Of a DNA stretch of 64,000 nt, positions 12,736 to 61,197 are shown in pieces (positions within the stretch are counted from its first letter, which is position 1; the number at the start of each line of letters is the position of its first letter). The notes below the pieces were generated by a model. That model saw only the letters and a program-made list of their open reading frames with translations, did no database searches and was not told where the DNA came from. Location of the stretch: positions 62,001-126,000 of the forward strand of contig NW_021835988.1 of the NCBI RefSeq assembly GCF_006345805.1, in the 5' to 3' direction. A program made the position numbers and the translations under genes. This stretch comes from Octopus sinensis. Taxonomy: Eukaryota.

Positions 12736-13536
12736 TCAAAAGCAATCCTTCCAGCATAGAAGATTGCTTGATGCGGGATATCGGCAGAGGTTGCAATCTA
12801 TTGTGAGTAAAATAACACACCGTAGGCTTCCTCAGTGATTAGTGTTGCGTCTGGAGTTGTATATGGATCCATTTCTACACTTTTATCAGTTAATTTGATA
12901 TCTAGATGTTTCGTCACTGTCGTAATCCTTATATTTGAATATATAAGTATACATTATGGGTTGGGACCCATTTGTGAATATGCACATTTTCTGGCTGGGA
13001 TAAGTACTACAAAGTCAGTAAGTTAAAATACCCCATTTTGAGGGGACGACTGATTTTTGGCCTCTGGAAAATGGTATTTGATGGCATGTAACTTTAATGT
13101 TAGAATAAGATTTGTACAGAGTTGATAATGCGACTAGACGTGCAAAGGCATCTACGTTCACGTAACGAAGGTCACTACACCGATACAGTGATCTAGTGAT
13201 TCAAAATATTTGAATGTACATATAGCGTAGGTAAATCAACCCGTCAAATGAGTTGTTTAGTATTCTCTTTAGCGAGTCTCCACTACAGTAACTAGTGTTA
13301 ATAAAATGTTGATTACAATGTCTCCAAGTTTGTTAAATTCGAGAATATTTCTCCATTTGGAAATACAACGTTGCTATAAATTCGAATTGATTTTGTATTT
13401 CCCGCAGCATTTGCTCCATTGAATTTACAGTTTCCCAAATCTCTAATTCAAATAAGCAATTTTTCAAAAACCCTTCTGTTAAGTCACAGTCACTTTGGAC
13501 CACTAAGTCAACAAAAAGTAGGACAAGTGAAAGCAT
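12736..13536 (-). CDS. Secreted leucine-rich-repeat protein, copy A (7 micro-introns; one extra G near 13281, frameshift or sequencing error)
   Basis: Signal-like MLSLVLLFVDLVVQSDC; FSNLTNLETF, LKRILNNSFDGLIYLRYI, LRYVNVDAFARLVALSTL; Cys-rich tail DCNLCRYP..CWKDCF; introns 23-29 nt. Confidence 0.8.
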
Positions 13537-13654
13537 TCTAATTAAAGCTAATATTTTATTGCGAATAACTCATTGGTTAGACAACAAATAAATTAAAAAC
13601 TTTATTAACTAAACCCAAAACCGAAAATAATAAAAAATTAAGTAATTATTGATC

Positions 13655-14010
13655 CTAGTTTTTGGAAATTTTTCTCATCTTGAGGGGACTCCATAACTCA
13701 TTCTTTCCACATTTACTTTCATGCTCAGAGTCATTAATAATTTGTCAATTTGTTTCATCTGGGGTTTTCGCATTATTAGTTTGTCATTGCAAACAACTGC
13801 CGTAATGACTTCTTTATTAGGCATATTAATTCGCATTTCTATGCTCCAGAACGATGCTTTCTAGTGTCTTTTTCATTACAAGTGCCAGAATGTATGTTCT
13901 CGTCGGGCCTTGAACAAATAATCTTTCGATATAGGAGATAGAACACTTTGTAATACTTTTAAACCTACTCCGTCCCTATTCACAAAAAGATAGAACACTA
14001 TTTTTTTCAT
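13655..14010 (-). mobile_element. Degenerate 3' end of an R4/Dong-like RLE retrotransposon
   Basis: TYILALVMKKTLESIVLEHRN aligns with YIQSLTIKKTLEAMLVEHKH of the 55.6-59.4 kb element. Confidence 0.65.
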
Positions 14011-14029
14011 GATTGTCGTTTAAATCATA

Positions 14030-14340
14030 TATTTTTACTGGAATGCCACATTTATTAAAGCAGAGGGAGATTGTGTATTATTTACGTCCATCCAAGCAGT
14101 GCTAATCCACAGATAGCATGTAAAAAAAAATTTTAGGCAAGCGGTGTCGCAGTGGTTTCTGTTTCGGAAGCAGTCAAGATTATTAACAAAGGAATTGTAG
14201 AGAATTGAGCAAGAGGAGAAATGCCTGGTTTCAATTACCTACAAAACACGGATTGGATGCCACCTACGTCGCACCGACTGCTAAAATCGATTGACGAGAT
14301 GTCTGATAAATAGAATGATTGAGAAAGAGAGGGAAGAAGT
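14030..14340 (-). pseudogene. pogo/Tigger DDE remnant
   Basis: WISTAWMDV..TISLCFNKCGI; homologous to 12549-12667. Confidence 0.5.
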
Positions 14341-14554
14341 TTGCAGTATTGTGAGCAAGTGTTGGACTGCCCCACCAATCTCACTCACCCGAGATTAGGG
14401 TGTAATACAGTCCGACCTTGAATTGGAACACTAAGTGTTCCAAAAACTGAAGTTTTTCCAAAAACTGAGGTTTTGTCAAAAAATTAATATCAATATAAAT
14501 TTAATTAAGACGTTTATTTACGAAACCAAAATTTAATTAAGATTAAAGATTAAA

Positions 14555-15650: not shown

Positions 15651-15684
15651 AAAGTCAGTATAGTTAAATCTGTATTAACTTCTT

Positions 15685-22742: not shown

Positions 22743-22930
22743 GAGGTCCTTGAAACCTTCCCGCCAAAAAAAATTTAAAAAAATTCCGGATTTTGGTTAA
22801 AATGAACTACAAGTATGTCGTCAACTCACATGATAAGGTCCTTAAAACCTTTCTGTCAAAAAAATAATTATATAGAATTTTGGTTAAAATAAACAACGTG
22901 ATTTTCCTCGACACGCATTATCAGGTCCAT
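22743..22930 (-). repeat. Two diverged inverted copies of the 95-bp satellite unit
   Basis: GAGGTCCTTGAAACCTTCCCGCCAAAA..TTGGTTAAAATGAAC is the reverse complement of the 8657-9362 unit. Confidence 0.8.
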
Positions 22931-23759
22931 TATTGTATTAGTTATTATTAACCACACTGACAGATATATATGACTGCGAGGTCTTAAACCCGTCGTTTTC
23001 ACTTTAATGGTTTTGCATGTTTTCGAATAAGATTTTCACCAAAGTTGATTTCAAAGCATCAAGCCCTTTTAAAGTTCTCTGACATCATTGAGTGACTATT
23101 ACTTCAATAAAGAACTTATTCACGGCGATCACGGGGTTTCAAGCCTCTTCATTGCTCAAAAATCGTCAAAAGTATTCAGATCTTGTAATTAGTGGCTATT
23201 GATGAATGATAGATCTCATCAACAGTTTGTGAAGAAACACACAAGAATTAATTTTTTTCAATTCAAATAATATTTAAAACTGAAGAAAAAAATGTCACAC
23301 AGCTCCAGCGGATAGAATCGTTTGAGTGTTTCCGCGGATGACCACCATCAAAAAACGCTGAAACAATCATTGGGTCTACAACGGTCTTTTATGCGCACAA
23401 AATTCAACTAAAAAATTATATATTTCTGGCTACGCTTCACTTCATGCTTTAATGCAGCTCTGACTTATCCAAACTAGAATAGATAGTTCGGGTTTGTTAC
23501 AAAAGTATTTTCAACAATATATCCTGGAAGCAAGCAATTCTCCTGCTCTTTTTTAGGGAAATCTGCTTACGATTACCTCAGGATGTTGTTTTACCTACGT
23601 ATTTGTCCTCCCGACTATGTGTAATCCTCTTGTTGAGGTCATTCTCCCCCTTTGGTCCAAACATAAGACGCCTTTGCCTGCAAATGGGTCTCAAAATTTG
23701 GCAAGAAAGATGACTAGAAGTTCAGGTTCTCACCTTTTTTAGAAGCACTGGGATAACAT

Positions 23760-24285: not shown

Positions 24286-24784
24286 ATGATTACTACACAA
24301 CAAAGATCAACAAATCGTTGTGACCTCGGACATATCAGGACTTCTTCCTTTCTCATACAAATCGGGACATTTGTAAATAAAAAATCCCATTTTAGATCAT
24401 TTCAGTTTCAGTAATAATCACATCCAGCTTGAATGACAGATTTATTGTACATGGGAGAGAATATATTCAGTTCTGTGGAGCAACGTCGCTGATTTTCAGT
24501 ATCCTGCACTTTCTATTTTATTTTCTCAAAATAAAAACAAAATTTGGACCTTCTCGTGAAAGATTTATCGAAATGATAATATATTTTGGATTTACAATTC
24601 TATATTTTATAACCATAGTCATTTTAGGAGCTGATAGTGGGCCTTGGTACTATAATATTGACAGAGGGATAATCTTCGTTACAGCAGTATTAATGTTTTT
24701 ATAATTTTTTAGTTATTCTGTTGTTTTGGTACACTACTCAATGGTTATTGTGCTTATATATCGTATGTAGACGTATATGTATAA
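24286..24784 (+). CDS. Four-TM MARVEL/CMTM-like protein, two micro-introns
   Basis: ATG 24286, introns gtaaat..ttag and gtatta..ttag restore a continuous frame to TAA 24784; four hydrophobic segments; DLGHIRTSSFLIQI start. Confidence 0.6.
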
Positions 24785-25009
24785 AATAATGGACTTTTTA
24801 ACGTTTTTGGTCTTTTTTATTTTGATTTAATTAAAATATTCAAACATAGATATTAATAGATATTTTTATTGCTATAATCAATGTGGTGTAACCACCGATT
24901 AGAATAAAAATTGGTTATTTTTATTACAAATGATAAAATATTTAAACAGTTTAATATAAGATTATTTAAACAGTTTTAAAAAATTATTTGACTAGGCTAA
25001 GGGCAGTCT

Positions 25010-25445
25010 CTAGCTGATTCTGGTGATCTTCTGAGAAAGTAAAAATGGCCACAAACCTGTTCCATCAAAACATGTCAGGGCACAAGGGAATTTTATATTG
25101 AATAGCTTTTTTGAGAACATGGCTGGACTCAACTCAAAGTCGACCTCATCCTCAGGGAAAGGCAGAGACTGTGAATTGTCCTGTCGTTTATAAGACAAGA
25201 CAAACGAGTGATTCCATGTCGAATAGTGTGGATAAATGCTCCCATATCTCGGCTGGGAAGACTTGAGAGTTGGTGGGGCATATTTTGTTGTACTTTCTGC
25301 AGGCAAATATCATTTGAAAATGTTTATTAACTCTTTTTATTAAGGATATGTTATTACTCACTAGCTTGGTTCTCTGTGGTGCTAAGAATAAATATATTTC
25401 GTTTTTCTTCAGGTCAACTAATGTCCTTTTCTCGATGACACACAA
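25010..25445 (-). pseudogene. MRGBP: MRGBP/Eaf7 copy lacking the ATG (ATC) and with an altered first splice acceptor
   Basis: VNKHFQMI..IWEHLSTLFDMESL..PFPEDEVDFEL; paralog of 31521-31939. Confidence 0.75.
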
Positions 25446-26959
25446 AGAATAACTTGTAGAGGCGCAAACGAAGAGCGAGCGTTGCCGGCCTGTTACCCAT
25501 CCTATCCAATTTAGTCTATTTAACGCTGTCGTCGACAGTACTTTCCTCCGGGCTGTGTTCTCATTACAAAAAATAGAATATTTAAAGGTAATTGGAACAA
25601 TTCTAGCGAAAAACGAAAAACTTTTTATTTAAAAAAGGCTCCAAGGAATGAACCAAGTTTTTTGGAACGTCTCCAATCCCAAACAATTCTGATTCCATAG
25701 GTGCGATCTCCGTGATTTCAGTTTTAGTTGTATTCACGTCGAGGAACTATTTTAAAGGCCCTGTTTCTGCAAAGTCAAGTAACCGCCTCAAGGCTGTTGT
25801 ATCATGTGATATAAAATCCACATTGGCATCGTAATTTGCACGTTATAAGAGCGTCTAAGATCGTGCAGTGTCGCCTTCAGGAAAATCGTTTAAGACCCGC
25901 ACGTGTGAAAATATAACTATTATGTTTCTACTGCAGTTGCAAATAATATTAATTGGAAAATTTGTTTGTTAAAAAAATAGCAATTTGTTTGTTTTGTTCA
26001 GGCTGCTCAGCTCGTCTCTTCCCGAAAAAAGTGTGGTTGATAAATATTCGAAGGACCTAATTTTGAATATAAAATTTGTTCCCCAATCAGAGTTTGCAAA
26101 TAGACGTCTATTTCGAAGACATGATATTGATTCGAATCAATTACTTCTATGTCGATATAAATTCTAGGGACACTTTTGCCTCAATGCAAAATGGACATAT
26201 AATTTTGTGATACCATCACCTAGGAATATATTTCATCCAACTTTACCTTAAATTTTGTGATTAATTCATTGACAGTTTGATCATGCCAAATATTCTCTTA
26301 CTCGTATCCTTTTTACCAGTCGGGAGTACTGCTCTTATCACTCAGTGCTATTCTGGTTGTTTGTTGATTTACATTTTAAACATGAAAATAATTTTTTCAC
26401 TCATCCTAGTGCTAATCATTAAATCCGTTAATTTTCGAAGCTGCGATAAACTTGCTCTCTTTTTTATCTCCCGCGTTTGACTCATTGAAAAAAACCATTA
26501 TGCTGAGTAATATTACTGTAAAGATGATTCTCTTGGGTCCCTTCTATCTTTCTCTCTATGTCGTGGATAAAGGCCGCCGTGAGATTTATTGGGATTCCTA
26601 AGGTTTAGAATGTGACGAAGGGAAAGCGTTATGGATCAAGAGATTTTGCCATTTGAACTAATTAAAAAATTTGTCAATAAAGAGAAACATACCCGTTTCC
26701 GTTGAGCGCTTTCATTTTTTGTGTCTATGTCGACGAATTATAAAACAACAAGAATCAGACTACCAGAAAGCCCTTTTTATCGAATTATGTAAGAAACGGT
26801 ATTAGAAAATCATGTTTACATTTCATTAGATGAAATTAATTGTCTATCAAGAATGCGACAGAAAAGTAAATCCTTTGAAAAGATAAATAAAACTAAAGTT
26901 TTTGAAACTTTTGGTTTAATAATTTAGAAAAACCTCCTAAACATTTTGAACTGACTGAA

Positions 26960-27650
26960 TTTTCTTCTGCTTTCGAAGTTTAGACTGCATCTGGCTTGCC
27001 ATCTCCGAGATGGATCATTCTCAAAAAAGTTGGGATTCCATTCGATGTAAAGAAATCTGAAATCAAGCGCCAATCAAATCGAACTCGCCTCACTAAACGC
27101 CGCCGCGCAACCACACGTAGGAAACTAGTTAAATTCCGTCCCACTATCCTCAGCCTGTTTAATTTTGATGATGAGTCAGTTCGGCTCGGTACCTGTCTAG
27201 GACAAAATCTCTTTAAACCATTGGTTGATAATTAATGTGTTAATAGATTAATCGTCCTGACGGACCGCTAAACTGTTCCTCTGAGAACGGCAATCGAAAA
27301 CCGCTGGAAAAGCCAGTCCACCTCGCATGAAGATTTTGTCCCCAGGCTTGCGGAGGAAGTTTTCCGTCTTTAGACCAAGAGAACCCGACGTCTCTTCCGC
27401 TATCGGCATCACGAAGAAATCATCCGTAAGGGCGGAACATTTGGTTAGGTTTAAATCTTCAGCCTTCTTAGCAGCAGATTTAGCCTCCAGAGCAGAGGAA
27501 GTTAGTTGTGAAGCAAAAAATGTATCCCAACAGGTTGCGTCCCATACGATAACTTTTCCGATTTTAAAAAGAAATAAGGTTATCCGTCAGGACGTTTCCC
27601 GTCATGGTTTGAGGACCGAAAGAAATCCTGACGAATTAAGGACTCTTCAT
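26960..27650. mobile_element. Convergent pair of degenerate CRE-like fragments
   Basis: Plus: LNAAAQPHVG..DDESVRLGTCLG; minus: IVWDATCWDTF..PIAEETSG..FQRFSIAVLRG. Confidence 0.75.
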
Positions 27651-27769
27651 ATGATCGCATCTTTTTAAATAACAGTAATTAAAAAAAGTGAAAAAGCCTG
27701 CAGAACAGACACAAAAAATAGCATACTTTAAGGTAATTGGACCAATTTTGGAAAAAAAAATATATTTTC

Positions 27770-28164: not shown

Positions 28165-31141
28165 AGGCTGTTAGTGAGGGTATAATTAAGACCTTCGGCA
28201 TTTCTGCCTTTTCAGTCCCGCACACACGCTCGCCTCTCAGCCGCAAACTAAGACTTACCGTCTTACCTGCCACCCTGACATTATCTTTTCTAAGACCTCA
28301 GGGAGGCCTTTGAGGGACAATTCCTAGGTGTCTGTGAGCTCCACTCGCCATCGTAAGCCATGGGCTAGCCGGATGGCTCGTCTTCTGACTTTCTTGAGCG
28401 CGTCAACGTACTTCTCTCGCTCCTCACAGAAGTGCCAGGCATGTACGCCATAGGTCAACACGGGTAACACCATGGCGTTAAACACACGTAGCCAAGCACC
28501 TCTCCGCAGCCGGAAAGCACGCAACGCGCCTAATCGCTGCATTGCACGCATTTTCGTACGTGCAATGTGATCATCAAACTTACCGGACGGCTTAAAGAGC
28601 ACGCCCAAATAAGTCATCCGATCAACTGCAGCAATTGCTGACCCGTTCAGCAATAACCTAGGAGCGTAATTAGTGTAACCCCTCGTCCTTTTACAGACTT
28701 TGAGAACACTGCACTTATCCGCACGCATCTTTAGACCCCTACTCCCACACCAGTTTACAAGTCCATCCACAGCAACCTGTAGCCTACGGCACGCACACTC
28801 AGGTTTCATCGAGTGATCCCAGAGGATGATGTCGTCTGCATAAATTACCATTTCAGTACGAGCATTGACTGGCATGGGCGCAGATGCCATAAAGACATTA
28901 AAAAGGGTGGGACTCAGCACAGAGCCCTGAGGGACCCCGCGAAGGACTGTTCTGACTTTAGAAAAGACCCCCTGATGCCGCACGACCTGTCCGCGAGATT
29001 CAAGGAACCCCGACAGCCAGCGCCTTAGACACGGAGAAACCCCACACGTGGCGAGGGAGCCCCGGAGGCCGTCGTGCCACACCGAGTCGAAGGCCTTTTC
29101 AATGTCAAGACTAACTAGCATACCGCATTCCTTCTTCTGGAGGGCGCACTTCATCTCAGAAGACACCTTCCATAGGCAGTCTCCACACGAACGACCCTCC
29201 CCGAAGCCCCATTGGAACTCAGGGAGGGCATCAACCACCGTCAGCTCCTCCAGGAGCCTTCGGTGCATGATCCTTTCTAAAATTTTAGATACAGCGGGAA
29301 GCAAGGAAATAGGTCTGTATCCCCCAGGGACATCATGTGGCATCCTGGGTTTTCCGATAAGGATTACCTCAGCCACTTTCCATCTAGAGGGAATCATCCC
29401 AAGTCGCAAGCTCCCGCTAAACAAGACCTGTAAGGCGGTGATCAACAACGGCGGGGCCTTCTTAAAGATGGCCATAGGGATCCGATCCAGACCCGCCGCA
29501 GTGTTCTTACTTCGGGAGATCGCTGCCAGAATCTCCGCTTCGGAAATATCGCCTGCATCGTTCCTTGATATGCCCAGCTGGCAGCGCTTGTCCCACGACA
29601 ATATCTGCTGGACAGTATCAAAGGACGATGTCTCCACGAACTGACTTCCGTCAGTTCCAGAGATGTTATCGAGGTGGGTCGAAAATATTTCAGCCACCTC
29701 AACCGGGTCCGAAACGAGGGTTCCATCAGAGCGTTTAAGGCGCACTGAATTGGCTACCTCTCTCCCCGACAGGCTCTTCAACTGTTTCCAGAAGTCCGGG
29801 AAGCGGGCGTCTACGCGTCTGCAGGCTCGCTCCCACCGTGAACTTTCGAGTTCGCGGATTTCTCTTCTGATCTCCCTCTGAAGCCGGCTAATCCAGCCAC
29901 GAAACCAAACGCGGTTTTCCTCGTAAACGCATTTGTCCCGTAGTCTGGATAGCCGGCGCTTAAACTTAATTTTATTTAAGACCCGGTATGGGAGCGTGGA
30001 ATGTGACTTACCCTGCACTGAGTTCTGTTTGAAATTATCTCGCATATAATCAGTCAGGGCAGCATTGATTCCATTATCTAACGCCTCCAACTCACGTATA
30101 TTGGCACAGGTATTCCCCACCAGAAGTGAGGGCAACCTGCTGGCCATGAACCTCTCCAGGTTGGCCCAAGAACCCGACCGGAGGTCGAAGTATCCCGGAA
30201 CCCTTTGAGGGACTGGCTCGCAGAGTTCGTGCAATAGAGGCAGATGGTCGCTTCCAATATCGGGCAATAAAATTGTTTTACTAACCCAATTTAGCATTCC
30301 AGGACTGACCAGAGCAAGCCCTAGCCAGTCTCGTCCGCCTCGCGAATCGATGTGATTTGGCTCACTTGAAGTCCGGATTTCCAGCCCGAGGTCTTCAACC
30401 AGCGTCTTCAGAGCCAAACCATGCGCATTGGTTACCCTGAAACCAAGCTCTATGTGCTTGGCATTCAGGTCTCCAACAACCATCGCCTTCGGATGCTTTC
30501 CAAAGAACTCCCGTACGTGCCAGGAACACGCCGTAAAGTTCTTCGAATACATCCCCCCTAGGTAAAATGTAAAAATGTAAAGTTACCTATACGAATCCTT
30601 ACTTGAAGGAATTCGCATAGGCTACAAAAACATAAACCTGAACTTTGCAATGCGAGGTACGGCTTGTAGAATAGTTCCCGTGCCACATATTGACCCCTGT
30701 TTCCAGGGTATGTGACAACAGTTGTAGCCATCAACTACGTACGGACCCCCCTTTACCTTCGTTTCGTTGACCACCAGAATGTCCGCACTCGTGGTGGCCA
30801 ACATCCTCTGAACGGCGTCTCCTTTACCGGACAAGGAGCGCGCGTTCGCCGATATAATGTTGAGCATCATATCGGTTCCTCGCCAAGGATCTTCTTGGCC
30901 TCAGCCATGTTGCAATGTAGCATATCTGCTACACTGCACTTCGTCGCCCTACATAATTTTAGTAGGCGCACACACAACTGCACCTCAGGACTAATGGTGT
31001 CCTGGGGAGCACGCTCGCCAGGGGGGGAGTGCGGTGGCATTTCCACGTATGGAGGACGCCTTTTCCCCCCTAGGTTTTGCTGGGCGGTATTACCTGTAGC
31101 CCACTCGGAAGGCTTAGCACGCTTCGGCATCCGAACTGACT
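28165..31141 (-). mobile_element. APE-RT LINE (I/Jockey-like), 5'-truncated, ORF2 frameshifted
   Basis: ISANARSL..VNETK, VGDLNAKH, GSDHLP, YRPISLL, LDIEKAFD, GVPQGSVLSP, YADD, YLGV; ORF1 tail overlaps ORF2 start (ATGA at 30867-30870). Confidence 0.9.
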
Positions 31142-42509: not shown

Positions 42510-43890
42510 CTCTTGTTGAATGAGAAGGCCGTCATTCCATGCGGACGTTTGCCGTCTCCTCAATCAAGACCAGTAGGCTCCAACCGAAGGGAGGCCATTA
42601 AAGCCCCGTTTGACGACGTTGTTTATATTGAAATGTTTCGTTTAACTGACAGGGAAGAGTGTCTCCAAAACCGAACATGCCCGAGCAATACCACCGAATC
42701 ATAGAGGCAACAAGCTCACGTTTTTTATTTGTGATAGGAGTGTTCCATCGGAGAGTGGCGAACCAAGGACAACCAGATCTGAGACCGACAGCCAGAAAGG
42801 AGGCCTGATCAAATAGGGGATGGTCGGGGAAAGCAGAGTGAACTCCCATTTTGAGGGATAGACCAAATAATATCGACGACATTGTGATTTAAACGAACCA
42901 CCAAAGGGGATATCATCAAGATACCACAAATTGAGCGGGCAATATGGTCCACTGCGAGGGCAAATAGGAGAGTGGATCCCCTTGGTGAACCTTTTTTCCC
43001 AAATAAAAGATTCGATGAGCACGTGTAAGAGAGATAAATAATCGGATTTATAATGATCACTATTTTTTACAACTTTTATCATCAAGTCGTGTATTCTTTT
43101 TTAAAGGTTATTCCGGTTGTCTTGACATGGAGTGGAGTTGTATCAAAGTTCTTTAAAATTCATAATAAGTTATCCATTGAAGATGGAACTTGTACATACA
43201 TCCAATCGGTTGTGCTGAAGAGGACGCTGTAGAGTAGCTCATTGAACACAGACACGGAATGAGGGTAGCTAATGAAGAGTACGCATCGGCTGCCAATCAA
43301 CTTGCTAAGCTAGCATGTTGCGAGGACACTCAGCTGAACAACTACGCAAAAATGGAAAATTAAGGGAAGTTTGGGCCAAACTCTTCTTCCAAGCAAAGAA
43401 GAGAAATCACTGACGATCTGGATTCTTAACTAAATAATTCAATATATTCCGAGGCATGATGACAATAATATATTTAATCAGGATTGTAAAAATATTTTAC
43501 GGATATCTTCAATTACATGCGAACAATATATGTTGTCCCAGTTCCTTTGAGTCGACGGAATGTCCGGGACTTTAAGCCCCCGAGAAACCAACACGCTGAC
43601 ACCAGCCGCATATTCCAACAACTCGCACTGTTCAGAAGAGGGAAAAAGAACAGAGTTGACGAAATTAGTGGAGGCGGACAACGATGATAGGTAACACGGA
43701 AGGGATAAATCACGGCAAGAGCGAATACCGATGCCCCCATAACGGATGGGCAAATTAGCACGCAGAATATCATCAGATTTGAATTTTATCACCAGTAAAT
43801 ATCATTAAAACTGCACAAGGGCTTTGGAAACCAGATTATCGAGGCGAAATAAGTATTCTTGTTCGGGAAAGCAGGGCGTAGAGCGCATTA
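42510..43890. mobile_element. Nest of CRE-like (minus; 42510-42990, 43480-43890) and R4-like (plus; 43100-43430) fragments
   Basis: NLWYLDD, GDGKRPHG, LPIRYGGIGIRS; LTWSGVVSKF..YIQSVVLKRTL. Confidence 0.75.
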
Positions 43891-43899
43891 AATTACATT

Positions 43900-45730
43900 T
43901 TTACAGGAATGCCACACTTATTAAAGCAGGGGAAGATTGTGTTTTATTTCACATCCATCCAAGCTGTGCTAATCATGAATAGCATCTAAAAAAGAATTTT
44001 TGGCAAGTGGTGTCGCAAAAGAGGAACAAGGAAATATTAAAGCAAATAATTAGGTTAGTCAATTAGTAACATCCGAAATGTAGGTCAAAAGCAATCCTTC
44101 CAGCATAGAAGATTGCTTGATCCGGGATATCGGCAGAGGTTGCAATCTATTGTGAGTAAAATAACACACCATAGGCTTCCTCACTGATTAGTGTTGCGTC
44201 TGGATCTATTTCTACACTTTTATCAGTTAATTTGATATCTAGCTCATCTGTCACTGTCGTAATCCTTATATTTGAATATATAAGTATACATTATGGGTTG
44301 GGACCCATTTGTGAATATGCACATTTTCTGGCCTTCAATAATACTACAAAGTCAGTAAGTTAAAATACTATATGTAGAGGGGACTACTGATTTTTGGCCT
44401 CTGGAAAATGGTATCTTGTGGCATGTAACTTTAATGTTAGAATAAGATTTGTACAGATATGATAATGCGACTAAACGTGCAAAGGCATCTACGTTCACGT
44501 AACGAAGGTCACTACAGTCATACAGATCTCTAATGATTCAAAATATTTGAATGTACATATAGTCTAGGTGATTCAGCCCGTCAAATGAGTTGTTTAGTAT
44601 TCTCTTTAACGAGTCTCCAAAACAGTAACTAGTGTTAATAAAATGTTAATTACAAATTCTCCAAGTTTGTTAAATTCGCGAATATTTCTCCATTTGGAAA
44701 TACAACGTTGCTATAAATGAAAATTCTTGTGTTATGTCCTGCAGCATTTTCTCCATTGAATTCACAGTATTCCAAATCTCTAATTCAAATAAGCAATTTT
44801 TAAAAAACCGTCGTGTTAAGTTACAGTCACTTTGGACCACTAAGTCAACAAAAAGTAGGACAAGTGAAAGCATTTTAATTAAAGCTAATATTTTATTGCG
44901 AATAACTCATTGGTTAGACAACAAATAAATTAAAAACTTTATTAACTAAATCCAAAACCGAAAATAATAAGAAATTAAGTAATTATTGATCCTAGTTTTT
45001 GGAAATTTTTCTCATCTTGAGGGGACTCCATAACTCATTATTTCCACATTTACTTTCATGCTCAGAGTCATTTATAATTTGTCAATTTGTTTCATCTGGG
45101 GTTTTCGCATTATTAGTTTGTCATTGCAAACAACTGCCGTGATGACTTCTTTATTAGGCATATTAATTCCCATTCCTATGCTCCAGAACGATGCTTTCTA
45201 TTTTTCATTACAAGTGCCAGAATGTATGTTCTCGTCGGGCCTTGAACAAATAATCTTTCGATATAGGAGATAGAACACTTTGTAATACTTTTAAACCTAC
45301 TCCGTCCCTATTCACAAAAAGATAGAACACTATTTTTTTCATGATTGTCGTTTAAATCATATATTTTTACTGGAATGCCACATTTATTAAAGCAGAGGGA
45401 GATTGTGTATTATTTACGTCCATCCAAGCAGTGCTAATCCACGGATAGCATATAAGAAAAAATTTTAAGCAAGCGGTGTCGCAGTGGTTTCTGTTTCGGA
45501 AGCAGTCAAGATGATTAACAAAGGAATTGTAGAGAATTGAGCAAGAGGAGAAATGCCTGGTTTCAATTACTTACAAAACACTGATTGGATGCCACCTACG
45601 TCGCACCGACTGCTGAAATCGATTGACGAGATGTCTGATAAATGGAATGATTGAGAAGGAGAGGGAAGAAGTTTGCAGTATTGTGTTGGACTGCCCCACC
45701 AATCTCACTCACCCGAGATTAGGGTGTAAT
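43900..45730 (+). repeat. Segmental duplicate of 12550-14410 (LRR gene with flanking TE remnants)
   Basis: Flanks and introns near-identical to the 12.5-14.4 kb block. Confidence 0.93.
44085..44873 (-). CDS. Secreted leucine-rich-repeat protein, copy B (intact, 7 micro-introns, ~200 aa)
   Basis: Continuous spliced frame MLSLVLLF..FANLTNLENFYCFGDSLKRILNNSFDGLNHLDYIDLYDCSDLRYVNVDAFARL..CWKDCF*. Confidence 0.85.
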
Positions 45731-46039
45731 ACTACAAGACAGTCGACGACCATCTCTGCTACAAGACGGAAATAGTCGACCCACCAAGAAAGTCTCCCAT
45801 TTTACATATGTAGAGAAGGTGATACAAATCTTAGAGGCCTATTCGTAAGCACATTAATTGTCTCTGTTCTCTCTGCAGCCCGACAACCTCAACCGACTAG
45901 GGCCTTTCTTCAACTTGGCAGTTTTTCACTGCGAAGTGAAGGAGATTGCGGAACAGTCCGTGGTGACACCGGAGGAGTACTCCACAACAAACACTCCATT
46001 TTCATTGCCAAACTCATCCTGGACAACCTCTGAAGCATT

Positions 46040-47863: not shown

Positions 47864-50623
47864 TCATACACAGTCATACGCCTTATTTGCCTTTTTTAAC
47901 TGCTTCTTAACCCAATTGACAGTCTTCTTGCCGTTGGGGGTGCATGTGAGCCGGTCGTTGGTCAACAGTTGGTTGACGGAGTCGAGAGCGAAGAGGGAGC
48001 GAGTTTGTGTGGAAAACATGCCCAACATGTCCCTAGGAGTGAGAAGGTGTGGACACCCCAATAGTCCGCACAAATTTTCGAGGGTGGAAATGTCGTAAAT
48101 GGAAGAGTTGGCAGCGACGGAAGTGAGAAAGTCGAACAAGAAGGGGAGGTGTGGATTGAGGAGGGAAGAGTGTGATGCTGGTGGTTAAAGAACAAGGCAC
48201 CCGCGAGTCCCTGGACAATGCCGGTGTATGCCTGAATGCATGCTTCGTGTGTCTGTGAGAGGAGAGCGAGGCCTTGTTGTGTGGACTGGAATGAGGGAAG
48301 GGAGGACTTGGTCGAAGGAGGCGGAGGCAGCGGATTGGAGTGTGTCGAGGACGAGGGTGGCGAATGGGGCAAAGTGGTGGCCGAGTGACAAGGCCAAGTC
48401 CCCGAAGCCGGCCAAAATGACAGCCTTGAGTTTGTCGGAGGTGTGTGGACTCTGTGGAATAGTGAGGAGAGTTACGAGGAGGATATTCCAGAGAGAGGAC
48501 ATGAGAGGGGTGTGCGTAGGGGAGGATGTGTTGAGGGGAGTTGATGTCGGCGAGGAGTGCCAGACAGGCGAACAAGACCTGTGATGGGGAGAGTGGAGAA
48601 CCTGTTGGTCGTTGTGGGGTGTGAGGAGATTGAGCAAGAGGGGGAGGATGGTGTGAGTGTTAGTATCGTCGAGAAAGGGAGAGAGGGCGTAAAGGGCGTC
48701 CTCGTGGACATGGTGGTGGGCGGGGGAGGAGAGGAAGGTGGAGAGGATGTGGAAGGCAGTGTCTGCGTGTGTGAGTTGTGAGAGGGGGAGGAGGAGGACA
48801 ATGGACTGTGGTGATGGGGAGGAGTACTCTGATGAGTGCACAGAGGAGTGACTGTACGTGGAATTGATTGTCGAATTGGAGTGTATGTTGTAGGTATTGG
48901 ACGATGAGAGGGAAGTAATGTGAGAGGACAGGAGACATGTCGGGGAGTATGTTGTGTGTGATCAGACAGATCAGAGTCTCGTAGTACACCGAGTCGTAGT
49001 GTGTAGTGCAGAGGCGAAAGAGTGCGTCGAACAGATGGTGAAAGTGTGGGGAGAGTGAGTGAGGGGCAGTGGAAGCAAGAGTGGAGAGTGCCTACAAGTG
49101 AATAAGAATGGTAACGTAGCAGGCATTGGTGGCCACTCGTGGTTCGTGTGTGAGACACGTGCGGAGTGTGTGGGCAATGTCGTGGAAGGGGAGGTGGGGG
49201 ACGTGCTCGCACAACTGGCCGAGTACCCAGACGACGGTGTCGCGGACTGCCACACTGGGGTCGGTAGTGGCGAGTGTGAGGAGAAGGGGGAGGACGCGGA
49301 GGGCGTGTGGGGCAATGTTGTGGCGGACGACACAGCCTGGAGTGACACACAAACACGACCGAATGCCATCACGGCGGCCTCCCGCATATTCCAATGGGCA
49401 TGTCCGATGAACTGTTCTGCAAAGTGGAGGACGTGGGGGAGGATGTGGTCGTGGCAGCATTCGCTGAGGAGTGTGAGACAGACGGAGGCTGCTTTGGGGG
49501 GGATCCAGCAGCCGTCGGTGTCGTCATCCTCGTGTTGTTTGGGGAGGTGTGTGAGTATTGGGTATATAATGTGGGGCATGGCTGCCTGTGCGTACAACTT
49601 GGACGAGTGGGGGGAGGACAACTCCACCTCACAAATGCTCGACCAGAACTCGATTCCCTGGAGGACGTGTGACTCACTTTGGATGGCATTGAGCGTGATC
49701 TGTACATGTCATGTCCTCACTACCGGGAAGATCAAGTCGGCCATGTAGTCCTCCAAGTACTCGTAAAAGTGTGCGGCCATGACATCCAGGCACTTGAGGG
49801 ACATGTCGGCCACGTCCACGTCCGACGAGTGGCACGACTGGCAGACCACCTTCATTATCACGTCCCGTTCATTCTATCGTAGACCAGAGGAGGGGGACCT
49901 TGGCCTGCAGGAGGGGGACTGTCGAGTGGAGAGCCCTCAGTGCGGCCAATTGGATATATCCACTAAATAGGACAAACACCACTCACACACTCGCCTCCAT
50001 TCCACGCACAATCGCACTCACCAACAAGTCCGTGTGTTGGGCCATGTACGAACAGTCCTGCACTATTACCACACACCACACCAGGTCATTCGCTATGAAC
50101 CCCAGAGCCTCCAAACTGGCCTCCGTCACACGCCCCTCCATCACGTTGTTGCACAATAACACCACTCCCTCCTCCCACTCTCCAAACGCCATCTCCACAC
50201 ACGCCACCGCAGAATACACCATCGCCACACTGCTCGGTCTCCACCTCTCCTTTCCCAGTCCACACACAATCTGCCTCATTACTCACTCCTCACATTCCAT
50301 TTTATCCTCTCACGCGCCCACTCTTCCTGCTCTCTCCACCGTTGCGCCAGCCACACACGCTTCTCACTGTTCACACTCCCAAATATTATATTCTTCAATT
50401 GGATGCACGCCTGTCTACATACTACCTCCTTGCTCTCCCCCTTTATTACTTCCGACAGCTCCAACATCACTTCCGTCTACACTTTACTCACACCACCCAC
50501 TAAATTCCTTTCACACGCCTCCTCCAGCACTTCCAGGCACTTCTTCACTTCACACGGGTCTACAACTTTACACAACACTCTACTTCCCAACACTGATTGC
50601 TCCAACAACATTGACAGATCCAT
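47864..50623 (-). CDS. KPNB1: Importin subunit beta-1 with many ~23-25 nt introns
   Basis: MDLSMLLEQSV.., ACIQLKN, QRW, RPSS, SLEALGFI, QGIEFWSSICEVE, WIPPKAASVCLTLL, WNMREAAVMAFG, VRDTVVWVLG, VHEDAL, GFGDLAL, WVKKQLKK*; not every junction was checked. Confidence 0.9.
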
Positions 50624-50682
50624 CACCACACTACACTCTATTTATTCCCTCTTTTAATTCATCTAATTTAGCTAATTAATAA

Positions 50683-51600
50683 TTACTCTCCAATTTTTGT
50701 TTTCCGAGTTCCCCATGACTCCACTCTGATCGTCCTCGCCATTATCCTCAATCTCCTCCTGCAGTCTCTGGGTCTCTTAAGGGACTTGCTGATCTTCATT
50801 ATATTTCCGCCAGTCCCTATTTACGGAATTTGCAGAGTCCAGGATTTCAGTGAAGCCATGTTTGTACTCGACAAACATGCTCTTCAGAGTGGCCTTCAGC
50901 GTTACAGTCTGGATGTAGGAACAAACACTTTCTTCAATCCCAAGAAGCTCCATGTACTTGCGGTAGAACGTTGAGACGATTCTATCCCACGTAATAACAA
51001 TTGCACAATCTTTACCTAGCCTTGTGAATCAGTTGTAATTCACTAGCTAAAATGTCGTATTTGTGCAATTTTTCTACTTCCACACTCTTTAGGTCATCTA
51101 TTGAAGTCACACCCACTTCAATAAGCCATATTAGGTTCTCTTTTTGAATATTTCATATGAATATTTAGATCCATTAACAGCTTCCTGACAAATTTGTCAA
51201 TTTCATCAAAAGCGGACGGTTCCAAATCCAGAAGGCCGATATAATAATTGTACAAGGAAAGTCAAAATAAACAACCGAGGAGACAGGGAATCTACTTGAA
51301 GTATTCCACGTTCTATGTTAACAGTTCCCAGATGCTGCTTTCCTAATTTGAGGGAGACCTTCCAATTTGGAATTATTGACATTATAAACTTTGTTATCCA
51401 TTCAGGAAGCCCAGAGTTTTTCAGAATCACTGCAAGGAATTCGTGATTGATTGAGTCAAAGGCTTTTTTTACGTCTACCCATGGAGAAAATAATTTGTAC
51501 TCATGTGACCTGTTCACACAACAGTTAATAAGTGCTTGCTCCTTTGCACCTTGACAATGCCTCTTAGTGCCAAGTTGACAATTAAAGATTAGACTGTATT
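50683..51600 (-). mobile_element. R4/Dong-like element, internally deleted
   Basis: LGTKRHCQGAKEQALIN, WVDVKKAFDS, GILQVDSLSP, LIEVGVTS, TWDRIVS, FVEYKHG. Confidence 0.85.
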
Positions 51601-55555: not shown

Positions 55556-55564
55556 TTAGTTAGT

Positions 55565-58500
55565 CCCAGGCTTCCTTATCTTTATTTTACCTTCTTACCT
55601 TCGGATTATTTTACCTTCAGGCCGAAAGTAAAAAGCAAACGGTGTAGGCTGACTATTTTGTATTCTCTCACTAGTTTGATACAAATTATGCATAGTCACT
55701 GTAATATAGTCCGAATGATAATTGTCCGAATAATAATGATAAAATAGTTTGAAGTGTGACGTGTATGTCTGTTTTCACCAGTCTGCAAACAAATCCTGAG
55801 GGCCTTCCTACATAAAATACAAATAATAATAATCAATCAGAAGTTGGAAACGTGTCTTCAGGGATACATGGAACGCCTGAAACTTGCAATGATCCTTATA
55901 TTGAACCTTCACGAACGCATTTGCTCCCCCTTAAATCATTGATAACTGAAACACATTCTAACGACAAATTGCAGTGGATATCTTCTGTTGTTGATTCGGC
56001 TAAACGGAGATTTGGAAGAATCCCTCGTGGTGGATGGAACCTCATTGTACATAATTTCAATACCCGTTTTCTTGTTCAGAAAAGCATCTCCGATGTTAAA
56101 AAATTATTGAAAGTGAAACGCCATAATGAGACTTGTGGTAATCAAAATGATGTGGGTGTAACAGAAAACGGAAATTCACTGTCAAAAACAGAAATTTCTT
56201 TATATGGAAAATGTAAAGAAGAATTTAATTTCCAAATTAAGAGAGTTATATCAATATCAAGGGATTCGAGAAAACCTACCAAGAAGATTCCATATAAATT
56301 GGTTAAGAAAGATATTCTGGTTGCTTTGGATGCAGTGATTTCAAATTATGTATTGACTTGTCCTTCAAAGGATATAAACGAAATCACGGATATTATTTTT
56401 GCAGGACAATGTGCATACGAAAATTTGGTTCTTAAAAATAAAATAAGAACCTCTTGGAGGGAAAATATTGAGAAGAGAATTACTAAATTCAAAGAGAACC
56501 TCACTCTTATTGCTAATTTCTCCAGTCTGAAATCCAAAAGTGAAAAGGATACGGCCCTGGACTTTATGTGCTCCTTTGAATATAAGAAGTCGAGAAAGGG
56601 AGAAATCACCAGAATATGTACGTTAATTGAAAATAGAATAAAAATCATGGAAAAAAGGATTTCGATTTATGAGTCACGAAAATCATTTAGAAGAGACAAT
56701 TTTTGTTTTGAACTCAACAGAAGGAGGTTTTACCGAAACCTGAATGGTGGAGAAAATAATAAATATACGTTGCCAGAAGGTGAATGTTTGTCATTTTGGG
56801 AGAAGATATGGAAAAAAGATGAAAATCATATTGTCACTGATGTTGTTGGAAAACGTATAACTGGCATAGAACAATCCCCAGTTGACATCAAACCAGACTT
56901 TATCAAAAGTATTATTAACTATGCGCCAAACTGGAAGACTTCTGGATGCAATGGAGTATACTGCTTTTTTATTAAGAAGTTTGAATCTCTCCATAATTAT
57001 TTATGTGATGAAATTTTGAAAATTATTAATAGAGATTACTGTCCTGGTCAGTGGTTTTACACTGGGGTTACATTTCTCATCCCAAAAAAAGCTTGTTGTG
57101 AATCACCTAATGACTTGCGTCCGAATACATGCATGCCTATACTATACAAACTTGTTACAAAATGTGTCAACACTAAACTTACAGACTACATTGAAGCTTT
57201 TGGTCTTGTTTCGGATAACCAACTGGGAGCTAGAAGACATTGCCAGGGTGCAAAAGAACAGGCTTTAATAAACCAGTGCATTAACAATCACTATGGAAAT
57301 AACTTATTTGCGACATGGATTGATATAAACAAAGCATTTGATTCTGTTAACCATGAATTTTTATCGCTGGTATTGGATTATTCTGGACTCCCTGAGTGGA
57401 TTGTGAAGTTTATTAAAAGTTTGATAAGTAAATGGAAAGTGATTCTGAATCTCAATGTAAATAGAATTGGAACAGTGAAATTAGAAAGAGGAATTCTTCA
57501 AGGAGATTCACTATCTCCCCAACTTTTTACGCTGGTAATGGATCCGTTGAGCAGGATACTAAATCACAAGTTTCCTAAAATCTGTATTGACCATAATGAC
57601 CCGTCTCAAATAACATACTCAACTAATCATCTGCTATTTATTGATGATTTGAAAATACTTGCTGAGAAAGAAAATACGATCTTGAGGATGATGGAAAGTA
57701 TTGATGAATACTTCAGTGTTGTTGGTCTCAGGAGGAATTCTGAAAAATCTGCAACCAATCTGAATTATGTTAAAGAAACTAGAAGTCTTGACGGATATGA
57801 TGGATATCGATATCTGGGAGTCTTGGAGGATAAAGGAAGCAATGTATTGAAGCATGAAGTTATGAAAAAAATTGCAGAAAATGTAAAGAAGAGAATTGAA
57901 AGCTTAGTGAGCACGAAGCTAAATGCAGTGAATCTATTCAAGGCGATTAATGAATATTGTCTATCACTTTACAATTACTATATTGGACTAATTGACATTG
58001 AGCCACACGAGTTTCAAGCCATTGATACCGAAGTTCGAAGGATTCTATCTAATTTACATGTTCATCTGAAACCTGCAAATAAGGAAAGATTATATATAAG
58101 CAGATCTAACCTTGGAAGAGGACTTAATTCAATTGTCCATAAAAGTGAATGCATGTTATACCAATTTTTGACTGATCTTGAAAGAAAGTCTGCAATGTGT
58201 CTCAGAAAGGCTGGAATCTAGCGGGTCTTGAAAATAAATAAAACACATATGGCCACCATCGCAAGATTTCTTACCTTCAAATACAATATTGAAGATCCTT
58301 CAGAATTGAATATAAACATAATCAAGGAGAATCAACAAAAGAGTCTAATGAAGATTATTAAATCGAAGATGTTGCATTCCGTACTTTTCAAATGTTGTGA
58401 GGATCAGAATGTTGACATCAATATGTCTACGGAATGGCTAGTGAATGGAAACAACAGTCCGAGATCAGAAGTCATAGTCTGGCTATTTCAGAGTCCACGA

Positions 58501-59365
58501 CTGAAAGTGTCAGTTGGAGGACTACAAAGAGGCACTGAGTCGCCTTCCTTTATTATTCAGGATTGTATTATTCAGAATCGAAATATATTTTTCAACGATA
58601 ACGGAGGAATGTGCAATCATTGTAATCAAGCTAAAAAATCTGTTGATCACATTGCTACAAGATGTAGCAGAATGCTGAACAGTGATTATACCAGAAGACA
58701 TAATGAAGTTATAAGATGCATCCATTTGCATCTCTGCCGCCAATATGGAATCAGGAAAACCAAAAGGTTAAAGTCACACACAGTCCAGTCAGTTAGCTCA
58801 AATCATAAAGTGGAGATAATGAAGGACACCACCTTGCAGACAGATGTTCATGTAAAAAACAATATACCAGATATCTTTGTCCTTGATAAAACGAAAAACG
58901 AAATCACTCTAATTGAAGTCGGAATTACTTCCCACGCCATGTTAAAGCAAGTGGAAGTAGAAAAACTGCATAAATATGATCTTTTTGCTGGAGAATTATC
59001 TCAAATCCACGGTGCGAAGGTAACGATAATCCCCATTGTCCTCACATGGGACGGGATAGTTTCTAAATTCTATAAGTCTTATATGGAAAGACTGAAGTTG
59101 GATGCTTCCACTAGATCGTATATACAATCGCTGACGATTAAGAAGACATTGGAGGCCATGCTTGTTGAACATAAACATGGAGTGGAAATTGAAAAACATG
59201 AGGAACAAGTTTCAAGGGCCACCAATCACCTCCTAAAATTGGCTAGAGAAACAACAGATCCACCAGATTTGCCGGAAGATGTGTCTCATGTGTCATATGA
59301 AGTGTTAGAAGAGAAGAATACGCAGATCCAGTGCAACGGTCCAAAAAGGAGGAGAATTATATAGA
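55565..59365 (+). mobile_element. Near full-length R4/Dong-like RLE non-LTR retrotransposon; single ORF with two in-frame stops
   Basis: ATG 55765 in frame with the 55852 and 58228 ORFs; QGAKEQ, GILQGDSLSP, FIDD, YRYLG, CNHC..H..C, RHNE, PDIFVLD..LIEVG; TTAGTTAGT at both boundaries. Confidence 0.9.
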
Positions 59366-59501
59366 TTAGTTAGTTATTAGTAACTAAAGACGTTAATTTA
59401 TAATTAAATTAAATATTATATTAAAAAAACAGTTTAATAAATATATCAATTCAATGTCTAACCACTGAGTTATTGACAATAAAATATCAGCATTAATTAA
59501 A

Positions 59502-60307
59502 ATGCTTCCACTTGTCCTATTTTTTATTCATTTAGTGATCCAAAACGACTGCGATTTGACAAGAAGGTTATTGAAGAATTGCTTATTTTAAAAGATATCT
59601 TAATTTATACAACTGTATTTTCAATGGAGAAAATGCTGCGGGAGATGGGATAGATATTACCATAAAGAGAAAAGTGACATTTCCTAATGGAGAAATATTC
59701 TCCCATCTAAAAAATTTGAAACAATTGTAATCAATATTTCATTGATATTAGTGAGTGTAAAGGAGACTCGCTGAAGAAAATACTAAACAACTCATTTGAT
59801 GGGTTGGATAAATTAGACTATATGTATATTTAAATATTTCGAATTATTAGAATGCTGTATTACTGTGATAACCTTCGTTACGTGAATGTAAATAGTTTTG
59901 CACGTCTAGCCGCATTATCACATCTGTACAAATCTTATTCTAACATTAAAGTTACATGCCGTCAAATACCATCTTTCAGTCGCCAAAAATCAGTCGTCGT
60001 GCCACGCTTTAGTATTTTAAATTACTGACTGTGTAGTTTGTATCACGACCAGAAAGTGTGCATGTTCACAAACGGGTCCCAACCCACACTGTATACTTTG
60101 TTATTCTCATATAAGAATTACGAAAGTGATGGATGAAGCATATATGATGTTAGCCGACAACAGTGTGGAACTAAAATTATATAAAAATCAAAAGATAACC
60201 CTCACTATGCAAGAAGCATTTGGTGTATTTGTATACTCACAATAGATTGTAACTTCTGTGACCACCCGATCCCCAATAATATGATCTGCACAAGTGAATG
60301 TAACTGA
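59502..60307 (+). CDS. Secreted leucine-rich-repeat protein, copy C (intact, same 7 introns)
   Basis: MLPLVLFFIHLVIQNDC..FSHLKNLKQFECKGDSLKKILNNSFDGLDKLDYIMLYYCDNLRYVNVNSFARL..CTSECN*. Confidence 0.85.
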
Positions 60308-60664
60308 AAAAATATTCTAACGATATTCATTAACTAACCTAATTATTTATTCTGATATTTCTTGTTTCCGCTTTTCTTTATTGTTACGTGCACTAGTCAA
60401 AATTAAAGGCAAACTTGCAACGTGGATTGCAAGTTGCTATTAACTTCATTTAAGTGGTATTGCTTAAACACATTTTTGAAAAGGGTCACCTGCGACCCAT
60501 CCGAGCACCGGTATCCTGCCAAAAGAGTACGGACACGAGGATCGATGAGTGTTGCCGTTGACTTGACCATTAGCATTTTGACTACTTTCCTGGCTACCAT
60601 CTAATTTTGTTTTTAGACTTTCATTATACGAGTAATAACAATCAGGAAAAGCTTAATATCTATA

Positions 60665-61197
60665 AATTAGTGATCCAACGTGACTGTGACTTAACACAAA
60701 TGTTTTAAGAATCATTTAGGGCTTTAGATACGGTGATTTCATTGGAGAATGTTGCGAGACATTCAAAATTAATTTTAATTCAACATGACGTTGCATTTCC
60801 CTTTGGAAAGACATTCTCCAAATTACAAACATTCTTTTTTATTTCTGTTCTTTTAATCATTACAAAATTGAAACATTTGTAATCAACATTTTATCTAATA
60901 CCCGTTACTGTATCTGAAACTCAGTACAGAAAATACCAGAAAACTCATTTAATGTCGTGAATGTAAATGCATTTGCACGTCTTATCAGTTTAAAGCTCTG
61001 CACAAATCTTATTTTAAAATTACAGTTACATGCCTAAGTATGACATTATTCAGTGGCCACAAATCAGTCATTCCCTACCATAATGTATTTTAAATTACTC
61101 ACTGTGTACTTTTGATGAGACCTATAAAATGTGCAATATTCCAATGGAGCCCGACCCACAATATATACTTAGACATTTTAATATAACGATTACGAAA
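60665..61197 (+). pseudogene. Decayed LRR family copy D
   Basis: TTAGTGATCCAACGTGACTGTGAC, GTGAATGTAAATGCATTTGCACGT and GTTACATGCC are collinear with copy C; splice sites lost, indels present. Confidence 0.8.

Follow-up and report, generated by a model that had tools for sequence, protein, structure and literature searches.

A stretch of 64,000 nucleotides from the Octopus sinensis assembly (GCF_006345805.1, contig NW_021835988.1, positions 62,001 to 126,000 of the forward strand; hereafter the window, with positions counted from its first letter) contains three intact genes and one decayed copy of a family of small, predicted secreted proteins of the leucine-rich repeat (LRR) type. The family has tens of copies in the assembly, positive selection on it is concentrated at the residues of one predicted protein face, and its source is very probably a dicyemid, one of the roughly 30-cell kidney parasites of cephalopods, that was co-sequenced with its host. 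The first-pass annotation of the window had proposed that four copies emerge once seven introns of 23-29 nucleotides are removed from each, and its coordinates, intron number, intron sizes, quoted motifs and counts hold. The genes, the DNA units that carry them and the larger block around genes B and C are as follows:

12736-13536, minus strand: gene A, 206 amino acids, eight exons of 65/126/72/75/60/54/107/62 nucleotides, a layout common to 32 distinct intact paralogs
13471-13443, 13316-13292, 13219-13193, 13117-13092, 13031-13007 and 12952-12928, minus strand: phase-2 introns of gene A
12820-12798, minus strand: phase-1 intron 7 of gene A, 23 nucleotides, placed by comparison with paralogs
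12540-14408, unstranded: duplication unit with gene A, about 1.87 kb, 94% identical to 43889-45732
12505-12668, unstranded: direct repeat of about 165 nucleotides downstream of gene A, with a partner upstream at 13989-14151 that is 84% alike
44085-44873, minus strand: gene B, 202 amino acids, the eight-exon layout of A with a 12-nucleotide in-frame deletion in exon 7
44808-44780, 44653-44629, 44556-44530, 44454-44429, 44368-44344, 44289-44265 and 44169-44147, minus strand: introns of gene B
43889-45732, unstranded: duplication unit with gene B
43888-44017 and 45321-45483, unstranded: direct-repeat pair at gene B, the same pair as around gene A
59502-60307, plus strand: gene C, subfamily 2, 208 amino acids, 58% identical to A
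59567-59594, 59727-59751, 59824-59850, 59926-59951, 60012-60036, 60091-60115 and 60223-60245, plus strand: introns of gene C, the first of 28 nucleotides
60667 to about 61290, plus strand: copy D, decayed, without a start, with a deletion of about 80 nucleotides at exon 3 / intron 3 / exon 4 and many indels
41600-64000, unstranded: block with gene B, an importin-beta gene, genes C and D and a FYVE gene, recurring at 97-99% identity on four other stretches of the assembly

The model of gene A was obtained without guidance, by looking from the ATG at 13536 for the longest frame that short GT-AG introns allow; this gave six phase-2 introns of 25-29 nucleotides. The seventh, of 23 nucleotides, was fixed against the paralogs and yields the conserved Cys-rich end, so that the introns measure 29/25/27/26/25/25/23 nucleotides. 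In a shuffle control that allowed up to seven introns of 23-30 nucleotides, none of 100 doublet-shuffled sequences reached an open reading frame (ORF) of at least 200 codons (median 12.5, against 206 in the real sequence). Between genes A and B, 3 of 180 intron bases and 36 of 202 residues are different, very nearly the contrast first counted by hand (about 3 of about 180, and about 35 of about 200); in the flanks, 18 of 799 bases on the 5′ side and 4 of 195 on the 3′ side differ. Two or three base changes are carried by 17 of the 42 changed codons, and the net charge of the mature protein is +1 in A and -12 in B, in agreement with the many multi-base codon changes and the basic A and acidic B that had been described.

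Throughout the 32 intact genes, GT-AG borders are present in 222/222 introns, the intron length is not divisible by three in 182/222, and intron positions and phases are kept down to 32% protein identity, while the intron sequences themselves have diverged. Because of these uniform borders and conserved positions and phases, the family genes are probably spliced at the predicted sites. It had been suggested that most introns are in phase 2 at the same point of each repeat; phase 2 indeed applies to six of the seven, but the inward codon that is interrupted at a shared point of the repeat is so only by introns 2-4, and introns 1 and 5 fall within a hypervariable codon. The description of the introns as near-frozen did not stand, as they are about as conserved as their flanks (1.7% versus 2.2% between A and B). 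Within subfamily 1, intron divergence is 0.033, half of the 0.068 at four-fold degenerate sites, with 0.038 upstream of the genes; between the subfamilies it is 0.153, versus 0.202 at four-fold sites. Special frozen introns were rejected, since intron divergence matches that of the flanks: the conservation reflects recent common ancestry and some splice constraint, and a special mechanism is needless.

Two introns show peculiarities of their own. Intron 4 (13117-13092, 44454-44429 and 59926-59951) is an outlier, with a divergence of 0.009 between the subfamilies against about 20% at four-fold sites. It contains a canonical-looking branch-point word, and its near-identity may reflect either a conversion tract or strong branch-point constraint. 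The sequence of intron 1 is apparently read through in frame in one subfamily (L084:2083-2295, L091:1669-1881), and this apparent exonisation lengthens the N-cap by about 7-8 residues.

Related genes were collected across the assembly by spliced profile alignment of 100 loci plus the window, with 132 candidate regions and a score cut-off of 120. The paralogs anticipated by the first-pass annotation are there, with at least 83 related loci: 83 pass the cut-off, 53 of these are full-length, 41 are without frameshift or stop, and these hold 33 distinct coding sequences. Omission of one of them (L078), which has a spurious intron spanning a frameshift, leaves 32 distinct intact genes of 202-218 amino acids, 32-83% identical to A; L078 is present in the protein alignment and absent from every selection test. 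The figure of 83 is a lower bound in the assembly, yet includes redundant haplotypes, some loci being 99.9-100% identical across 3.9 kb. There are certainly true paralogs among them, as contig C9004 carries seven distinct intact genes and the contig of the window four. DNA searches gave at least 45 matches to the family (40 of 133 candidates scored) and protein searches 89 (110 of 110 scored), and two further searches with single distant members as queries gave seven more distant loci. Among these seven, whose ab initio models are partial, there was no membrane-anchored parent. The distant LRR relatives L147-L149 (C8999, C1634) apparently have a shorter C-terminal half and introns of 33 nucleotides, according to their partial models.

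The family evolves by birth-and-death duplication. Its genes are carried in DNA units of 1.9-2.5 kb, also in tandem, and the ends of A's unit are common to several paralogs. On C9004 and C8899, copies stand in tandem at intervals of about 2 kb. The direct repeats of 130-165 nucleotides that bracket A and B could promote unequal crossing-over.

A host origin of the family was rejected, as no match lies on the chromosome-scale contigs C1-C30 (0/89, 0/56 and 0/6, with short single-protein queries that remote homology may escape); every match lies on unplaced contigs, C566 and higher. The assembly, of 2.7 Gb, contains two types of 18S gene, one of about 2.6 kb on chromosome-scale contigs and one of 1,667 nucleotides on an unplaced 16-kb contig (C1618, L031). 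The primers F3 and R2, which have been used for dicyemid 18S (PMC6778094), match the short type with 2 and 0 mismatches respectively, and neither is found within 3 mismatches in the one copy of the long type that was examined (L032). Repeats of C1618 also occur in LRR-bearing loci (93% over 292 nucleotides), and a long interspersed nuclear element (LINE) is common to C1618 and the window. The importin-beta piece of the window has 11 matches at 38-46% identity, and 7/7 named ones are animal. Six family contigs have a GC content of 0.37-0.41 and introns of 23-30 nucleotides. Animal introns this short have, in one account, been reported only in myxobolids (myxozoans) and Dicyema (PMC13644364); the median intron of Dicyema sp. 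is given as 27 bp (PMC6543705), and the D. japonicum genome is described as having 36.7% GC and 49% repeats, with CRE, Dong-R4, Jockey, TcMar, hAT and Ginger elements (PMC6736024). The traits of Dicyemida, namely introns mostly below 30 nucleotides, a GC content of about 37% and an abundance of repeats, are all found here. The reverse transcriptase (RT) and DDE ORFs of the window presumably correspond to the D. japonicum repeat types, which we take them to resemble. Renal organs have also been reported to hold ciliates, fungi and bacteria (PMC12953835). With a second animal genome, probably that of a dicyemid, unplaced in the assembly, the genes on it would be mis-filed as host genes. The host assembly contains a usable parasite genome.

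The protein of gene A consists of a predicted signal peptide (residues 1-15), a Cys N-cap, about four LRR-like repeats, a beta-rich segment and a Cys-rich C-cap. Intact members have a hydrophobic N-terminus (KD19 hydropathy 1.1-1.9 across the 32 genes, the signal peptide having been assessed by hydropathy and visual inspection), Cys at 17 and 27, and three clear plus one or two degenerate LxxLxLxx repeats; seven Cys are invariant in 32/32. The clear repeats of A occupy residues 61-68, 85-93 and 110-117, at a spacing of 24-25 residues, and exons 3 and 4 (72 and 75 nucleotides, phase 2-2) encode one repeat each. The chain ends 0-12 residues beyond the Cys-rich cap, and no membrane or glycosylphosphatidylinositol (GPI) segment, nor any hydrophobic stretch past the N-terminus, is present in the 32 intact genes. 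The proteins are predicted to be secreted, would fold as a solenoid with a concave beta-sheet, and are presumably expressed.

Searches with HMMER and an exon-2 profile gave seven weak multi-repeat matches, three to generic LRR proteins and four to unrelated ones. A hidden Markov model (HMM) of the whole family scored 24-43 bits for the three LRR proteins among these (P0001-P0007) and left the other four unscored, a test that is partly circular as the proteins were found via exon 2. No homologs were found outside the assembly with short queries (0/36 for a 57-residue frame against longer proteins, 0/7,993 for the exon-2 alignment). No description of a dicyemid leucine-rich-repeat family was found in a literature of which the supplementary gene lists were partly covered; the terms 'LRR' and 'leucine-rich' are absent from the main text of two dicyemid genome papers (PMC6736024, PMC6543705), the supplements of which could list such genes. 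As judged from sequence, the family is new for its phylum, and its evolutionary signal is real and strongly supported.

Selection was measured with our own codon-model program, which reproduces the M0 log-likelihood of IQ-TREE (-2994.51 versus -2994.57). The main test used 11 distinct intact genes of subfamily 1, at least 70% identical to A, with truncated or frameshifted copies excluded. Comparison of M2a with M1a gives twice the log-likelihood difference (2dL) as 219, with an omega (nonsynonymous to synonymous rate ratio) of 8.7 on 21% of sites and 27 sites at a posterior above 0.95. Comparison of M8 with M7 gives 233, and of M8 with M8a 222, in line with the positive selection that had been proposed. 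Multi-nucleotide mutation as the sole cause was rejected, since the likelihood-ratio test (LRT) still gives 134 with double and triple substitutions allowed, a multi-hit term that improves the fit by a 2dL of 18. Four gene segments with their own trees are all significant (26-62). Recombination as the source of the signal was likewise rejected by null simulations with heavy recombination (n=8, eight shuffled-tree segments), the largest LRT of which was 13.8. The LRT is 357 with all 32 genes, 133 with six genes of two contigs, and 31.8 in subfamily 2 (nine genes, one near-duplicate left out).

Selected positions make up 11 of 20 exposed x positions of the LRR strands, as defined by the published register of exposed LRR positions (PMC8226289), versus 2 of 70 inward or convex ones (Fisher test, 2.5e-7); the exposed x positions are where the variable residues had originally been placed. 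At the exposed sites the nonsynonymous rate is 53.7 and the synonymous rate 2.8 [0.2-9.4], giving an omega of about 19, with synonymous rates of 4-11 elsewhere; omega is 0.49 at inward and 0.88 at convex sites. Nine amino acids occur at residue 42 among the 11 genes, while the inward-facing residues on either side of it (41 and 43) hardly vary, third codon positions included. Selection also falls on residues 21-23 of the N-cap, on strands 131-136 and 157-160, and on 171-176, so that the binding sheet may extend past the recognisable repeats. Of the residues on the variable face 16.8% are Tyr, versus 4.3% in the mature protein, and the charge of the face ranges from -5 to +6 among members. The substitution spectrum is neither A- nor C-specific (variants per majority base: A 1.04, C 1.17, G 1.0, T 1.43). 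As the exposed synonymous rate is not raised, the face is selected rather than hypermutated, and hypermutation of the type of diversity-generating retroelements (DGR) or AID was rejected on the grounds of both rate and spectrum.

Exchange between copies accompanies this selection. The pairwise homoplasy index (PHI) gives P<=0.0025 in both subfamilies, for all informative sites and for silent sites alone, and a GENECONV-like permutation finds an excess of identical tracts in 5/55 and 10/36 pairs. L013 and L005, which differ at 69 sites overall, share an identical tract of 113 nucleotides with 10 derived bases across the first hypervariable strand, and L004 is a mosaic, with a 5′ half like L002 and a 3′ end identical to B across 322 nucleotides. 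The genes are mosaics of shared tracts, most likely the outcome of gene conversion, with which these sequence patterns are consistent. Positive selection and patchwise conversion had been offered as drivers of a diversifying family, and both act (M2a versus M1a 219, PHI P<=0.0025).

The block at 41600-64000 offers a further comparison. Its relatives on C10089, C10202 and C10868, and further upstream on the contig that contains the window (C12459:19500-38300), have a median divergence of 0.85-1.4% and are interrupted by differing insertions, and each carries a different LRR gene at B's position. Compared with its intact or near-intact positional homologs, B differs at 4.2-7.6% of bases and 19-41 residues; in blocks of 20 kb that are about 1% apart, the difference at this position reaches 19% of residues. 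Gene C differs by 3/806 bases, and 0-1 residue, in two of the blocks. The copies of the block are either haplotypes (alleles, from several worms) or segmental duplicates, and the depth in run X1 hints that they are few.

Recognition, antigen variation and allorecognition had all been named as possible roles. Recognition through binding fits best. Plain antigenic escape fits less well, as variation is confined to the predicted concave face (omega 19) and spares the convex one (0.88), and variation limited to one face makes a binder likelier than an escaping antigen. We lean, with little more than even confidence, towards a dicyemid multigene family of small secreted LRR-type binders, the face of which is diversified to bind fast-changing molecules of the host kidney. 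Copies would arise by DNA duplication and many would die; point mutations would be favoured on the binding face, conversion would shift ready-made strand variants among copies, and the population would come to hold many binding surfaces upon one scaffold. This diversification would take place in the germline rather than in somatic cells. Since the proteins are predicted to be secreted, are without a signalling part and belong to an animal attached to host renal tissue, the simplest target would lie outside that animal, and host molecules are favoured.

A bolder extension, which we consider doubtful, would see a germline 'antibody-like' repertoire of dozens of secreted LRR binders in an animal of about 30 cells, the gene set of which is among the most reduced, with an origin in a glycoprotein-hormone-receptor ectodomain, fast conversion, and an arms race with variable host recognition proteins that sets host specificity. 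The alleles or duplicates at B's position differ by about a fifth of residues. LRRs have been reported in 5/22 octopus adhesion G protein-coupled receptors of one expansion (PMC6408891); an arms race between these and the dicyemid family is speculation, and a sequence link between them was not found. Dicyemids are portrayed as a textbook case of genome reduction, with multicopy clusters of at most 16 copies that are tied to endocytosis and include no LRR cluster in the table concerned (PMC6736024, Table S3).

Among the rivals to a host-directed binding family, a secreted repertoire with which the parasite itself would recognise microbes, viruses or competitors in the renal sac by their patterns, resembling APL1/LRIM, is possible, if some way from probable. 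It would leave the same sequence signature as APL1/LRIM, the diversity of which has been ascribed to conversion among paralogs (PMC9222773); the Tyr-rich variable face is paratope-like, and ciliates, fungi and bacteria share the renal organs (PMC12953835). Signalling, coiled-coil and anchoring parts are absent from every intact member, however, no downstream effector came to light (none was sought), and a weaker counter-indication is the absence of the words Toll and TIR from what was available of the Dicyema sp. genome paper.

A role in telling self from non-self or in gamete recognition, between individuals or species of dicyemids and with diversity maintained by balancing selection, is unlikely. 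It would fit the strong divergence of B's positional homologs (19-43 of about 200 residues) inside blocks that are only 0.85-1.4% apart, with C varying by 0-1 residue in two of them, and the read depth of unique block parts (134-155 in run X1; summed contig depth, a hint only) is near the lowest level, as would be expected of alleles. Against it, the paralogs are scattered by the dozen instead of forming a single linked locus, and there is no partner gene; alleles and segmental duplicates are moreover indistinguishable here, and the contig that carries the window also bears one of the homologous blocks.

It is very improbable that the diversity arises by a somatic programme or by targeted hypermutation (VLR-like assembly from donor copies, or AID-like or DGR-like mutagenesis). 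Mosaic tracts and many pseudogenes would suit such a mechanism, and dicyemid somatic cells have been reported to rearrange DNA (PMC6543705), but the synonymous rate is unraised at variable codons, adjoining inward codons are fixed, and there is no A- or C-specific spectrum. The genes are also complete with their own start and introns, no incomplete acceptor or cassette array occurs in the 83 loci, and the depths of variant contigs are mostly near 60-75 or 125-130 (weak evidence, from summed contig depths). The weak scaffold constraint and many broken copies might suggest that the variation is an antigenic decoy, or relaxed decay in proteins that bind nothing; this reading can be given hardly any credence, given the codon-by-codon alternation on one predicted face (omega 19 versus 0.88 and 0.49), an omega of 8.7 that neutrality cannot yield, and Cys and intron positions conserved to 32% identity.

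Several points weigh against secreted, diversified LRR binders of a dicyemid. The predicted signal peptide is short, with a polar residue within the h-region. Motif and weak database matches are consistent with LRR identity, and support it weakly: Pfam LRR_8 matches three of seven exon-level pieces at E 0.0037-0.15 (12-17 bits, versus a curated cut-off of 27), Atlas gives a score of 0.93 with a recognition of 2009 versus a mark of 2300, and profiles of exons 3 and 4 match nothing in the PDB below E 0.1. The exposed set follows the published register, and was written after the variability table had been viewed and so is not blind. The scaffold is weakly constrained, with 49% of sites at omega 1 and the convex value near it (0.88), and selection is weaker in subfamily 2, where mean pN (0.113) is below pS (0.135). 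Broken copies account for 13/53 full-length ones; with the weak scaffold constraint, this means that part of the family may be decaying, and some of the breaks may be long-read errors. Chimeric assembly of mixed haplotypes could inflate the conversion signal, and the short 18S gene and the LRR genes lie on different contigs, tied by repeats.

Such a family would provide a first molecular handle on the interaction of dicyemids with their hosts, including whether they are parasites or commensals and why they are host-specific. The site-specific selection is among the strongest seen, and names residues for testing. The case also illustrates that 25-nucleotide introns, together with repeat masking, can conceal gene families.

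Other features of the window include the importin-beta gene at 47900-50700, with an extreme GC skew, +0.38 at first and -0.31 after a reversal near 50 kb, which visibly biases its amino acids. Duplicated pieces at 24631-25455 / 31142-31958 and 26561-27752 / 32011-33145 contain MARVEL- and EAF7-like ORFs, are 84-94% identical and have a LINE between them. A tandem array at 8646-9363 has about 7 copies of units of about 95 nucleotides, with an inverted relative at 22743-22932. Near-intact mobile-element ORFs lie at 55816-59364, 28324-30582, 10916-11992 and 1307-2602, and comprise non-LTR (long terminal repeat) RTs, one with a restriction-like and one with an apurinic/apyrimidinic (AP) endonuclease, and a Tc5/DDE transposase.

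Several known systems resemble the family in part, and the ones it would work most like are APL1, Leishmania PSA and the highly variable plant LRR receptors. Exons of 72-75 nucleotides in phase 2 that encode LRRs are typical of glycoprotein-hormone-receptor genes. The ectodomains of FSHR and TSHR (LGR type A) are approached by two signals, both below significance: FSHR is the top PDB match when exon 2 is used as a profile (E 0.033), though exon 3 and exon 4 give no FSHR match at E<=10, and a TSHR cluster appears in Atlas at 0.83. Unlike these receptors, the family has fewer repeats, a different C-terminal half and neither a hinge nor a seven-transmembrane (7TM) domain. A full LGR type A was rejected, as hinge and 7TM are found in 0/32 intact genes and distant members with a traceable 3′ end stop at the Cys cap; origin from such an ectodomain is a lead only. 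Variable lymphocyte receptors (VLRs) of the lamprey VLRB type share a short LRR module, a variable concave face and a secreted form; their incomplete germline gene is filled by somatic assembly, which draws on about 430 cassettes (PMC13590357). Identity with VLRs was rejected, since 53/83 loci are full-length with start and introns and there is no acceptor/cassette layout; the VLR C-terminus, made up of LRRCT, a Thr/Pro stalk and a GPI tail, is also absent, there being no C-terminal hydrophobic segment.

The highly variable plant NLRs and LRR receptors vary at positions 2, 3, 5 and 7 of LxxLxLx on the concave sheet, and likewise evolve by birth and death with conversion (PMC8226289); in contrast to them, the family is from an animal, is predicted to be secreted, and has no NB-ARC, kinase or membrane domain. 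Another parallel is the chromosome-12 subfamily of Leishmania PSA/GP46, in which a parasite has LRRs between Cys-rich domains in secreted or anchored proteins, under strong positive selection and recombination (PMC2584048). Kinetoplastid PSA varies in repeat number; in the present family each repeat keeps to its own exon in a constant layout, the introns are tiny and 0/32 intact genes are anchored, and the sequences are unrelated as far as tested. APL1 comprises three genes at an immune locus of the host, the products of which have long LRR arrays and a coiled coil. Compared without sequence homology, the dicyemid family differs from it in belonging to a parasite and in comprising tens of genes of about 205 amino acids, which have about four repeats and lack a coiled coil; what it shares with Anopheles APL1/LRIM is that paralogs of secreted LRR proteins are exceptionally diverse at nonsynonymous sites and undergo conversion among copies (PMC9222773).

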